Translations under genes and position numbers: made by a program
Notes under the pieces: model-generated
Seen by the model: the letters and a program-made list of their open reading frames with translations, nothing else
Told to the model about the DNA's origin: nothing
Database searches by the model: none
Source of the DNA: a virus
Taxonomy: Duplodnaviria; Heunggongvirae; Uroviricota; Caudoviricetes
Strand: one strand, 5' to 3'
Virus record (IMG/VR): IMGVR_UViG_2734482771_000002
DNA: 18,233 bases
Shown here: positions 15,023 to 18,233 of the stretch, piece by piece
Position numbering within the stretch: position 1 is the stretch's first letter
How the letters are laid out: each line of letters begins with the position of its first letter

Positions 15023-15613
15023 TTATATGTCAGGTGTCTGAAGTTTTGCTTTGGCTCTTAAAATGGTTTGCCGCGAGGTTTTGAATTCCCGGGCAATGGC
15101 ACTTATACTTACACCTGACTTAATTCGTTCGAATACCACCTGTTTCTGTTCTTCATTTAACACAGGTGGTCGACCAAAACGTTTCCCTGCGCCGCGGGCT
15201 CTTACTATCCCGGAATGAGTGCGTTCAAGTAAAAGGTCTCGTTCAAATTCAGCGACTGCTGAAATTACTTGCATCATCATTTTTCCTGTTGGACTGGTCA
15301 GGTCAATGCCACCCAATGCTAAGCAATGCACTCTGATACCTGTTTCGGTCAGTTGTTCCACTGTTTTCCTGATATCCATTGCATTACAACCAAGGCGATC
15401 CAGTTTTGTCACAATCAATTGATCACCACATTTCAGGCGAGCAAGCAACCGGTTAAAACCAGGACGCTCACTGGTTGCTGCTGAGCCGCTAATGTGTTCT
15501 TCGATTATTTGCTGAGGTTTGATTTTAAAACCTGCACTTTCGATTTCCCGGCGTTGATTTTCGGTGGTCTGATCCAGCGTTGATATCCGACAGTAAGCAA
15601 AAATTCGAGACAT
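15023..15613 (-). CDS. pin: Serine recombinase, Pin/Gin/Hin-family DNA invertase
   Basis: 196-aa [32 protein letters not shown]... with the resolvase/invertase N-terminal catalytic-serine motif (YCRISTLDQ) and a C-terminal HTH ([22 protein letters not shown]). Convergent with tfa, as in the Rac/Qin/e14 arrangement. Confidence 0.88.
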
Positions 15614-16163: not shown

Positions 16164-16667
16164 GAAGATATTCCTTAAAATATTATTGATTTTCATTGCG
16201 ATATTGTATGTCTGATTCAGGATATGTTGACTTATACATCGGTTTTGTCTGGGTTATTGGATATGCCAATCCCTAATTTTATTAGGGCATGACTAAAAAT
16301 GCTGAATATGATAAGGAGAGATGTGATTATCAGTATGCTGTTCATATAGCCTCGAATTAGTAATGTGTTATATATGATATAGTTGACAATTTTTATCTTG
16401 GGTGTTCTTAAAGTTCGTAGATAAACATTGTCGTTTCAGGTATACAGGAATGCTAACAGGTGGCAGCAAAAATCAGGCGGTTTATGGCGCAAGCTGAAGC
16501 GGCAACTGTAAACTATCTTATGCAGAGACTCTACACGGATTGGGTTTAAAAGTATACATAGATAACAGTTTTTATCTGAAAAAGAAAAATATCAAGGTGA
16601 TATAGCCTATATGCCTTTGATGCGGAGGAATGAATGTGATGGGAGTGATGTATCTGAATAGTTGAAA

Positions 16668-16705
16668 AACCGCAGACACGCCTTATGCAAGAACGTGCTG
16701 CGGTT
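16668..16705 (-). terminator. Strong hairpin, terminator-like when read on the minus strand
   Basis: AACCGCAG-A-CACG [13-nt loop] CGTG-CTGCGGTT (12 bp of stem with one bulge). On the minus strand the hairpin runs directly into a TTTTT tract (complement of the A-run at 16665-16669); on the plus strand no immediate T-run follows. Confidence 0.4.
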
Positions 16706-16949
16706 GGCTGGTAAATTTTTCGATAGTGTGAGTATTGAATGATTTCCAGCCGTTCTTGATTTTACGCATAAATCCATGAAAAAACTACTTATCTGTTGGG
16801 GAGTTTTTTTTGGGGCATATATGGGACAGAAATAGGCCCCAGATAGACACTGAGATCGAACTTAGGATGCTTTTTAAAAAATGCAACTATCTGAAAAAAC
16901 CTAGAAAACGCCAAGGAAACCACAGGATGGGAAAAAACACCTGTGAATT

Positions 16950-18233
16950 ATGGATTTCCAGTTATATTCGCTCGGCGCAGCGTTAGTGTTTCATGAAATA
17001 TTTTTTCCTGAATCATCAACGGCAATGGCGTTAATTCTGGCAATGGGAACCTATGGTGCAGGTTATGTGGCGCGTATTGTCGGAGCATTTATTTTCGGCA
17101 AAATGGGCGACAGAATAGGGCGTAAAAAAGTGCTCTTTATTACCATCACCATGATGGGGATCTGTACCACCTTAATTGGAGTGTTACCGACCTATGCACA
17201 GATTGGTGTTTTTGCACCCATCTTGCTGGTGACGCTGCGTATTATTCAGGGATTGGGTGCAGGTGCGGAAATTTCCGGTGCCGGTACGATGCTGGCGGAA
17301 TATGCGCCAAAAGGTAAGCGCGGAATTATCTCCTCATTTGTGGCTATGGGAACTAACTGCGGAACCTTAAGCGCAACGGCAATCTGGGCCTTTATGTTCT
17401 TCATTCTCAGTAAAGAGGAACTGCTGGCGTGGGGATGGCGTATACCGTTCCTGGCGAGCGTTGTCGTGATGGTCTTTGCTATCTGGTTGCGTATGAATCT
17501 GAAAGAAAGCCCGGTCTTTGAGAAGGTTAACGACAGCAACCAACCGACAGCAAAACCTGCACCTGCTGGTAGCATGTTCCAGAGCAAATCCTTCTGGCTG
17601 GCAACAGGGCTGCGTTTTGGTCAGGCGGGTAACTCCGGTTTAATTCAGACTTTCCTTGCAGGCTATTTAGTACAGACGTTATTGTTTAACAAAGCAATTC
17701 CAACAGATGCATTGATGATCAGTTCGATTCTCGGCTTTATGACCATTCCGTTCCTTGGTTGGTTATCCGATAAAATTGGTCGCCGGATCCCGTATATTAT
17801 TATGAATACCTCTGCGATTGTGCTGGCGTGGCCAATGCTTTCTATCATCGTAGATAAAAGCTATGCCCCGAGCACCATTATGGTTGCACTGATTGTGATT
17901 CATAACTGTGCGGTGCTGGGATTATTTGCTCTGGAAAACATTACCATGGCAGAAATGTTCGGCTGTAAAAACCGCTTTACCCGGATGGCTATTTCAAAAG
18001 AAATTGGTGGTCTTATCGCTTCCGGTTTTGGTCCTATCCTGGCGGGTATTTTCTGCACCATGACGGAATCCTGGTATCCGATCGCCATTATGATCATGGC
18101 ATATTCAGTAATTGGTTTAATCTCTGCGCTGAAAATGCCAGAGGTGAAAGACCGTGATTTAAGTGCGCTGGAAGACGCTGCGGAAGATCAACCGCGTGTT
18201 GTAAGAGCTGCGCAACCTTCCAGAAGTCTGTAA
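16950..18233 (+). CDS. ydfJ: MFS transporter of the metabolite:H+ symporter type (YdfJ-like), apparently 5'-truncated
   Basis: 427-aa ORF MDFQLYSLGAALVFHEIFFPESSTAMALILAMGTYGAGYVARIVGAFIFGKMGDRIGRKKVLFITITM... with many hydrophobic helices. Its first residues align to the conserved (E)WYDF.LYG...FFP box that in ProP/ShiA-type transporters sits about 25-35 residues from the N-terminus, so the true N-terminus appears missing. In-frame stop at 16944-16946 just upstream; stop at 18231-18233. Confidence 0.8.
   Translation: MDFQLYSLGAALVFHEIFFPESSTAMALILAMGTYGAGYVARIVGAFIFGKMGDRIGRKKVLFITITMMGICTTLIGVLPTYAQIGVFAPILLVTLRIIQGLGAGAEISGAGTMLAEYAPKGKRGIISSFVAMGTNCGTLSATAIWAFMFFILSKEELLAWGWRIPFLASVVVMVFAIWLRMNLKESPVFEKVNDSNQPTAKPAPAGSMFQSKSFWLATGLRFGQAGNSGLIQTFLAGYLVQTLLFNKAIPTDALMISSILGFMTIPFLGWLSDKIGRRIPYIIMNTSAIVLAWPMLSIIVDKSYAPSTIMVALIVIHNCAVLGLFALENITMAEMFGCKNRFTRMAISKEIGGLIASGFGPILAGIFCTMTESWYPIAIMIMAYSVIGLISALKMPEVKDRDLSALEDAAEDQPRVVRAAQPSRSL

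Follow-up and report, generated by a model that had tools for sequence, protein, structure and literature searches.

The interval 16380-16950 of the Caudoviricetes record IMGVR_UViG_2734482771_000002 (the window, 18,233 nucleotides in full) is the inner side of the attR attachment site of a Qin-type lambdoid prophage that sits in the Escherichia coli gene ydfJ. The minus strand of this interval carries a non-coding module of about 105 nt with two hairpins (about 16767-16658), the second of which is a working Rho-independent terminator with experimental support from E. coli K-12. The whole of the region is probably explained by a Qin-type attR together with hairpin 2 of the module acting as the terminator of the integrase (int) transcription unit. 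The module is a discrete, structured and transcribed unit found in 98% of complete E. coli genomes, at places where phage cargo is swapped. The part of interest is the module itself, which has no RNA family, no RNA annotation in the genome rows inspected and no match in searchable papers.

The two-hairpin module and its RNA 3′ ends

Read along the minus strand, the module opens with GTAAAATC..AAC (consensus start GTAAAATCrrTAAC) and continues through hairpin 1, hairpin 2 and a U-rich tail; by the alignment of its copies the unit extends over 16765 to about 16661. Hairpin 1 (16751-16706) pairs GGCUGG with CCAGCC around a conserved loop of 33-34 nt, 34 in the window. Hairpin 2 and its U-tract occupy positions 16661-16705. 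A stretch of 112 nt folds as the two adjacent hairpins at -34.3 kcal/mol (z -5.07). The sequence-only reading of this DNA had described a hairpin with a 12-bp stem at 16668-16705 as an intrinsic terminator of the minus strand, and both the structure and its role are borne out. The outer arms AACCGCAG and CTGCGGTT are perfectly complementary over 8 nt, the minimum free energy fold comprises 16 pairs at -20.7 kcal/mol (z -4.33) with none of 200 shuffles as stable, and on the minus strand the stem runs into UUUUU (16669-16665).

The borders of the module are sharp. An exact 22-mer taken from it retrieved more than 119 viral contigs, which form the basis of the alignment. Across some 60 sequence variants the flanks diverge fully just upstream of GTAAAATC and just past hairpin 2. 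The left border follows the pattern T-A-n-A-A-T, in which position 3 alone is free. With a covariance model (R1) for which 35 variants were used, the copy in the window reaches 114.8 bits (E 4e-27). Single-base insertions and deletions (indels) among the variants rule out the module as a protein-coding sequence.

The two hairpins are conserved in different ways, hairpin 1 in sequence and hairpin 2 in structure, by means of compensatory changes. Covariation was tested on helix 2, since the 5′ arm of helix 1 is fixed by the search pattern. In the model-based alignment of 63 distinct sequences, five of the nine pairs of helix 2 show double changes; the number of double-change cells is 23 against 6.7 +/- 2.3 in shuffles, and none of 500 shuffles reaches 23. 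The proportion of paired cells is 93%; it falls to 27-30% with the partners displaced by one or two columns, or by +3, and to 56% with a shift of -3. In loci that carry a dinI-like gene, the part of hairpin 1 that lies outside the search pattern displays 95% pairwise identity against 88% at the third codon positions of the adjacent dinI, an estimate that is biased by the way the loci were collected.

RNA 3′ ends map to the terminator in K-12. With window positions converted by the relation K-12 = 1632277 + (16958 - window), the two ‘orphan’ 3′ ends recorded by Term-seq at 1632571 and 1632574 on the plus strand (Adams et al. 2021, PMC7815308, Supplementary file 1) correspond to window positions 16664 and 16661, that is, to the C after the U-run and to a site 3 nt further, where the 3′ ends of an RNA terminated by hairpin 2 are expected. 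The read sequence listed at this Qin copy contains the same hairpin. A second K-12 copy, located between ecpE and ykgJ, has an ‘orphan’ 3′ end at 304212/304213 on the minus strand, 6-7 nt after hairpin 2, with scores of 88,000-99,000, about 30 times those of the Qin copy. Two independent copies of the module therefore form RNA 3′ ends in vivo. Among 56 variants of hairpin 2 the median folding energy is -17 kcal/mol.

The first sign of the extent of the module came from matches to window 16666-16769 in nearly all E. coli genomes. Of 5426 complete E. coli genomes, 5337 contain the 110-nt module; the matches number 8799, the median being two per genome, and the genome rows listed all give it either no annotation or the label ‘hypothetical protein’. 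Rfam returns no minus-strand family match for it at E <= 1, and its sequence has no match in the searchable full texts or in the supplements of the paper on anti-sRNAs (small RNAs, sRNAs) of enterohaemorrhagic E. coli (EHEC). Among species-representative genomes it occurs in Escherichia and Shigella only; outside these genera the scan gave mostly chance 18-mer matches. The covariance model finds no module beside the divergent dinI genes of Klebsiella, Salmonella Gifsy-2 and Yersinia phages or of the E. coli phages BP-4795 and PhiR12_2, nor in the lambda region searched as a control without dinI. A DinI protein scan of viral contigs returned near-identical copies only and added no depth.

Sequences upstream of the module are of several kinds. 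Of 126 copies, 61 have a dinI-like open reading frame (ORF) whose stop is 24 nt upstream of hairpin 1 and about 8 nt outside the left border, and 57 lack such an ORF; the window is of the latter group. In phages with a lambda-type int the module directly follows lambda's P1 site and the tI/sib hairpin, and other flank types are likewise free of any dinI trace. The module is thus not merely the tail of dinI, since the same left border is kept in these unrelated surroundings. Upstream sequence of 1.8 kb or more is available for 57 loci, and in 34 of these an ORF of an integrase class ends 0.1-0.45 kb before the module on the same strand. These integrases fall into at least seven classes, and one representative of each of seven was confirmed by Pfam. 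In the free phage corresponding to the window, the hairpin lies 242 nt from the attachment core and 290 nt from the int stop.

The cargo past the module varies as well: the window has ynfT-ydfK, the lambda site a diguanylate cyclase gene, and O157 a convergent nleG. In Rac-type loci the homology with the window begins only at hairpin 2, and terminators resembling hairpin 2 recur behind other cargo genes. A terminator of this kind in locus L135 (2531-2594) stands without hairpin 1 after a cargo gene for an S-adenosylmethionine-dependent methyltransferase, about 1 kb past a full module; the hairpin-2 family seems to mark several cargo boundaries.

The near-universal E. coli copy is the one between ecpE and ykgJ (K-12 304210-304330, minus strand; L278 1711-1830). 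It lies downstream of the ecp fimbrial operon, retains both hairpins and has a decayed dinI upstream. Its hairpin 2 ends 30 nt before the start codon of ykgJ, and the Term-seq 3′ end there is fairly strong; this copy may be a leader or attenuator of ykgJ, or may mark the end of the ecp operon. EcsR2 was considered as the identity of this element and ruled out, as it belongs to the neighbouring yagU-ykgJ spacer.

Attachment site and P arm

The attachment site was mapped by a four-way comparison in which the window represents attR, the free phage mEp460_ev081 attP, the strain cS33a with its intact ydfJ attB, and FDAARGOS_497 attL. The core TTATGGATTTC (16948-16958) is identical in all four. Identity with the free-phage attP stops after 16958, and similarity to the uninterrupted ydfJ of a strain with the order rspB-ydfJ-ydfI extends leftward to 16944. 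Phage and host differ there by a 1-nt indel, the host reading TGAATTTATGG and the phage TGAATTATGG. The attL of the lysogen lies between the integrase gene and rspB, and consists of the left host sequence, TTGAATTTATGGATTTC and the P′ arm. Accordingly composed of the P arm and the right host flank on one side, and of the left host flank and the P′ arm on the other, attR and attL are reciprocal recombinants, and the 1-nt indel to the left of the core shows the segregation expected of them. The crossover therefore falls inside TTATGGATTTC. In the K-12 annotation the boundary of Qin, 1632277, is the base equivalent to 16958.

These results agree with the sequence-only reading, which had placed the end of the prophage at the truncated transporter and expected an attR in the region. 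It had proposed alignment with a prophage-free locus and comparison with the other prophage end: the intact ydfJ of cS33a places the core at 16948-16958, and the attL of FDAARGOS_497 carries the identical core. The attachment site is ordinary known biology, already annotated in K-12. The integrase (426-431 aa) contains the domains Arm-DNA-bind_2 (PF12167) and Phage_integrase (PF00589) by Pfam. In the free phage its gene lies on the same strand and ends 38 nt past the core, and in the lysogen it adjoins attL.

The prophage is essentially the same phage as the free phages mEp460_ev081, HannyBb and Tritos. These three and PhiR42_1 carry window 16600-16958 at 98-100% identity, and in mEp460_ev081 and HannyBb, whose annotations were inspected, the window-like stretch is followed directly by integrase and excisionase genes on the minus strand. 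The spacer of 764 bases between ydfK and the truncated ydfJ (ydfJ′) is found at 100% identity in many E. coli chromosomes and at 99.2% in K-12-derived strains, where it is the edge of the cryptic prophage Qin. In the strain IMT16316 an IS1 insertion splits the intergenic region (window 16197-16960).

The P arm, the phage DNA from the conserved module to the core (16768-16947), falls within window 16600-16958, over which the free-phage attP is identical, and is 81.5% identical to the matching arm of the O157 prophage at ydfJ. The figure of 81.5% holds for window 16811-16965, which covers the region upstream of dinI and the first 8 nt of its ORF. Window 16684-16789 aligns with the same prophage at 85.8% and covers the last 17 nt of dinI with the sequence downstream. 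Between the two, about 21 nt (16790-16810) replace roughly 218 nt of the dinI ORF found in relatives, and what is left is a relic of a start codon and 9 codons (MPQKKLPNR*; 16818-16789, minus strand). Neither an intact dinI ORF (about 81 codons) nor a DinI-like translation was found upstream of the window's module, and no LexA box of the form CTG-N10-CAG stands upstream of the relic. The deletion is shared by K-12 Qin and by the free phages mEp460_ev081, HannyBb and Tritos, and because free phages carry it, it is a feature of the lineage and not a product of prophage decay.

Within the P arm lies a second dyad (GGGGC...GCCCC). The sequence-only reading had put it at about 16806-16836; the dyad exists, and its real position is about 5 nt further to the right, with 10-nt arms at 16811-16820 and 16832-16841 that are 90% complementary. 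The inverted repeat formed by TGGGGCATA (16811-16819, plus strand) and TGGGGCCTA (16841-16833, minus strand) may represent a pair of arm-type binding sites for the integrase. The P′ arm of the free phage has two further copies, TGGGGCATG and TGGGGCAAA, in direct orientation and 11 bp apart, within the 3′ end of int. The motif TGGGGCAnA is thus present four times, twice in each arm: inverted in P and in tandem in P′. Families of at least four also arise in 5 of 30 shuffles, and for this reason we infer arm sites here as candidates only.

Function of the module

The reading we consider probable assigns to hairpin 2 the termination of the int unit. In the direction of int on the minus strand, the order is att core, P arm, dinI relic, the module of about 105 nt, and a predicted promoter and leader of ynfT-ydfK. 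In an excised or infecting phage, hairpin 2 lies about 290 nt past the int stop, across attP, where it would end the leftward int unit; in relatives with dinI the terminated unit would be int-dinI. The hairpin would also shield the cargo genes beyond it from int transcription. After integration the module is stranded just inside attR, where it still terminates a low-level transcript. The fold, the compensatory conservation of helix 2, the position relative to int and the 3′ ends in K-12 are all consistent with such a role.

Several results weigh against this interpretation. The Term-seq evidence comes from K-12 and not from the strain of the window. A simple pattern scan for terminators failed to call the hairpin at 16668-16705, which we suspect is due to a bulge in the stem that breaks the gapless helix the scan seeks. 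Poor U-tracts, with two or fewer T within the first 8 bases past the stem, are seen in 17 of the 56 hairpin-2 variants, so termination may be weak in some copies. Phage mEp460 (L006 2495-4015) has int, dinI and the module in a contiguous series with only 61 nt between int and dinI, and its integrase is of a different type that has no arm-binding domain; in phages of this type attP is therefore not located between int and the module. No good promoter is found between the att core and the module. A plain terminator leaves the sequence conservation of hairpin 1 and of the left border unexplained.

Three candidate sources can be named for the Qin transcript that ends at the module: a start after TAAAAT, a weak TTGGCG-17-GATAGT pair at 16914-16886, and an antisense promoter in ydfJ′. 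The last corresponds to a constitutive sigma-70 promoter predicted for ‘ydfK’ in a study by genomic SELEX (systematic evolution of ligands by exponential enrichment; PMC3946193), at window 17352-17325, where the listed site sequence is TTCCCA-16-GATAAT on the minus strand. Such a promoter would send transcription across attR into the module. Neither PMC4782308 nor PMC6131387 has entries for transcription starts at K-12 16322xx-16327xx.

On a bolder and less likely reading, the module would be a functional RNA so far undescribed, carried by lambdoid prophages of Escherichia at their att-proximal end, with the ecpE-ykgJ copy as its fossil in nearly all E. coli. It would then be either an sRNA in which hairpin 1 is the active part, or a portable 3′-end element that affects the stability of the int/dinI message.

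The sRNA itself, whether the product of its own gene or a processed 3′ fragment of the int/dinI transcript, would act through the loop of hairpin 1 and use hairpin 2 as its terminator. A stand-alone RNA would start about 7 nt after TAnAAT and measure about 89 nt (window about 16752-16664), and the hairpin 1 loop would pair with other bases or bind a protein. The discrete borders between unrelated flanks on both sides fit this proposal, as do the resemblance of the left border T-A-n-A-A-T to a -10 box and the exclusion of coding by indels. Conservation of sequence in the first hairpin and of structure in the second is the usual sRNA pattern, and ‘orphan’ 3′ ends are present at two K-12 copies, fairly abundant at ecpE-ykgJ (score near 1e5). 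However, the different upstream flanks share no common -35 box, and the consensus scan detects no promoter in the ecpE-ykgJ spacer of K-12. Complementarity to the hairpin 1 loop is at chance level in 53 kb of phage sequence (the window and 35 kb of phage early and att regions), and neither Rfam nor the searchable literature offers a counterpart. The estimate of hairpin 1 conservation suffers from biased sampling, and all copies belong to Escherichia and Shigella, which implies shallow divergence. A stable decay fragment guarded by two hairpins would yield the same Term-seq signal. On balance an sRNA appears rather unlikely.

A different kind of regulation would follow if the module were a portable counterpart of lambda sib. 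Transcription of int from the early promoter across attP would then include the module in the message, and its cleavage would open int mRNA to degradation from the 3′ end; integration splits the module from int, so that Int could be made on induction. The geometry is suitable: core and int stop are 242 and 290 nt away from the hairpin, as compared with 145 and 233 nt in lambda, and the module is downstream of int and co-oriented with it across at least seven integrase types. Yet in read-through folds of 86 and 141 nt the stem is not extended, while the lambda control does produce the lower stem with the RNase III site, and there is no sequence similarity to lambda sib. Many phages have dinI standing between the module and attP. 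Where int is of the lambda type, a genuine sib/tI hairpin precedes the module, which is for that reason an addition to sib and not its equivalent. We consider retroregulation of this kind improbable.

To an equally small degree we allow for the module being a functionless relic, namely a dinI 3′ untranslated region with its terminator whose copies are similar through recent descent and recombination among Escherichia prophages. The dinI stop 24 nt from hairpin 1 in about half of the copies points in this direction, and so do the dinI remnants just upstream of the module in the window and in the ecpE-ykgJ fossil and the confinement of the module to Escherichia and Shigella. But the same left border is maintained where dinI has left no trace, for example directly after the lambda tI hairpin; the pairing of hairpin 2 is kept through many compensatory changes; and the ancient ecpE-ykgJ copy retains both hairpins and still forms an RNA 3′ end.

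If the module is a terminator only, as the preferred reading holds, it marks a recombination-prone boundary and helps to explain the exchange of ydfK, nleG effectors and diguanylate cyclase genes at prophage ends. If hairpin 1 has a function of its own, an RNA of prophage origin has been overlooked in K-12, where two or three loci carry it.

Neighbouring genes and related systems

The window displays lambdoid tail genes on its plus strand, followed by pinQ (15023-15613), ydfK (16163-15930) and ynfT (16232-16345) on the minus strand. The last two are named after the RefSeq annotation of an identical sequence, and ynfT encodes a small protein of the YnaM/YnfT family. On the plus strand follows ydfJ′ (16950-18233), the 3′ part of a transporter gene of the major facilitator superfamily that the prophage interrupts; the ATG annotated as its start falls within the att core and corresponds to Met29 of intact YdfJ.

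On the minus strand, the stretch between 16346 and about 16580 probably serves the cold-shock genes ynfT-ydfK as promoter and leader. The promoter is predicted as a sigma-70 site TTCAGA-18-TATACT (16580-16551; 9/12 in the consensus scan), and the probable 5′ leader spans 16346-16545, as suggested by gene annotation, Term-seq and published leader RNAs. Leaders that terminate prematurely and are bound by Hfq have been described for ydfK and for ynaE, its twin in Rac (PMC5089854, PMC4152368), and YdfK is strongly induced by a shift to cold (PMC10654059). The K-12 ‘orphan’ 3′ end at 1632744, equivalent to window 16491, falls within the leader at a place with no obvious terminator hairpin, in agreement with the published premature termination in the leader. 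A literature search for RNA interaction by ligation and sequencing (RIL-seq) combined with ydfK found no paper. The leader has no significant overall fold. It contains an inverted repeat of 14 nt (16385-16398 and 16419-16432; 93% complementary, 20-nt gap) about 40-85 nt before the ynfT start, which could be an RNA hairpin or an operator. A near-palindrome, ATCAAGGTGATATAG / CTATATGCCTTTGAT (16591-16621), lies directly upstream of the predicted promoter.

One arm of the leader inverted repeat includes the TTGACA that the sequence-only reading had noted on the plus strand (16383-16388) with a weak -10, TCTTAA, 17 bp on (16406-16411). Both elements are present, and as a promoter the pair (16383-16411) is judged a chance match: it fails the consensus scan, and the 7 promoter-like sites of the region are no more than shuffled sequences give (6.4 +/- 2.5). 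That this pair drives a short plus-strand RNA across the region is very improbable; the perfect TTGACA and a weak plus-strand match to the Rfam family CssrB that includes the hairpin (RF02799; window 16565-16702) speak for it, against the poor -10 and the promoter count at shuffle expectation, the lack of a U-tract after the hairpin on the plus strand, K-12 3′ ends on the other strand, and a CssrB score of 25 bits, far under the gathering score of 76.

The likeness to the Shigella RNA CssrB resides in its 3′ hairpin, which is the reverse complement of hairpin 2. It concerns the opposite strand, the rest of the model stays unaligned, and CssrB may overlap a copy of the module in antisense.

Another comparison is with the sRNAs that share a terminator with a gene or derive from a 3′ untranslated region, lambda OOP, and the EHEC anti-sRNAs AgvB and AsxR, which the module resembles in its small size, sequence-conserved 5′ part, structure-conserved terminator, prophage location and 3′ ends in vivo. 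The difference is that the module is known as an RNA by its 3′ ends. Identity with AgvB or AsxR was rejected, as these are encoded at the PR′ moron site and not at the att end (PMC4104026).

Among the dinI-like loci of lambdoid phages, such as mEp460 gp21 and the O157 prophage at ydfJ, about half of the module copies directly follow the gene, and the window retains the upstream region, the start codon and part of the 3′ end of such a locus. It differs from them in the deletion of the ORF, and the module also occurs without any trace of dinI.

The attachment site has its model in lambda attR (P-O-B′) and the lambda Int/attP system. Both share a short core common to phage and host, attL and attR as reciprocal recombinants, and a tyrosine integrase with an arm-binding domain whose gene ends beside the P′ arm. 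The arrangement of TGGGGCAnA, with candidate arm sites inverted in the P arm and in tandem in the P′ arm where they overlap the 3′ end of int, resembles the lambda sites P1/P2 and P′1-3. The two systems differ in the core and in the host site, which is inside ydfJ here and between gal and bio for lambda. The arm-binding domain is PF12167 here and PF09003 in lambda, and the arm-type sites are candidates only in the present phage.

The module can also be set beside lambda tI/sib, which has in common with it the hairpin followed by a U-tract, the strand of int, the position a few hundred bases past int on the far side of attP, and the separation from int by integration. Unlike tI/sib, the module forms no lower stem in the read-through RNA and has no similarity to it in sequence. 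It adds a conserved hairpin upstream of the terminator, coexists with a true sib in lambda-type phages, and is found in phages whose integrases are of at least seven types.

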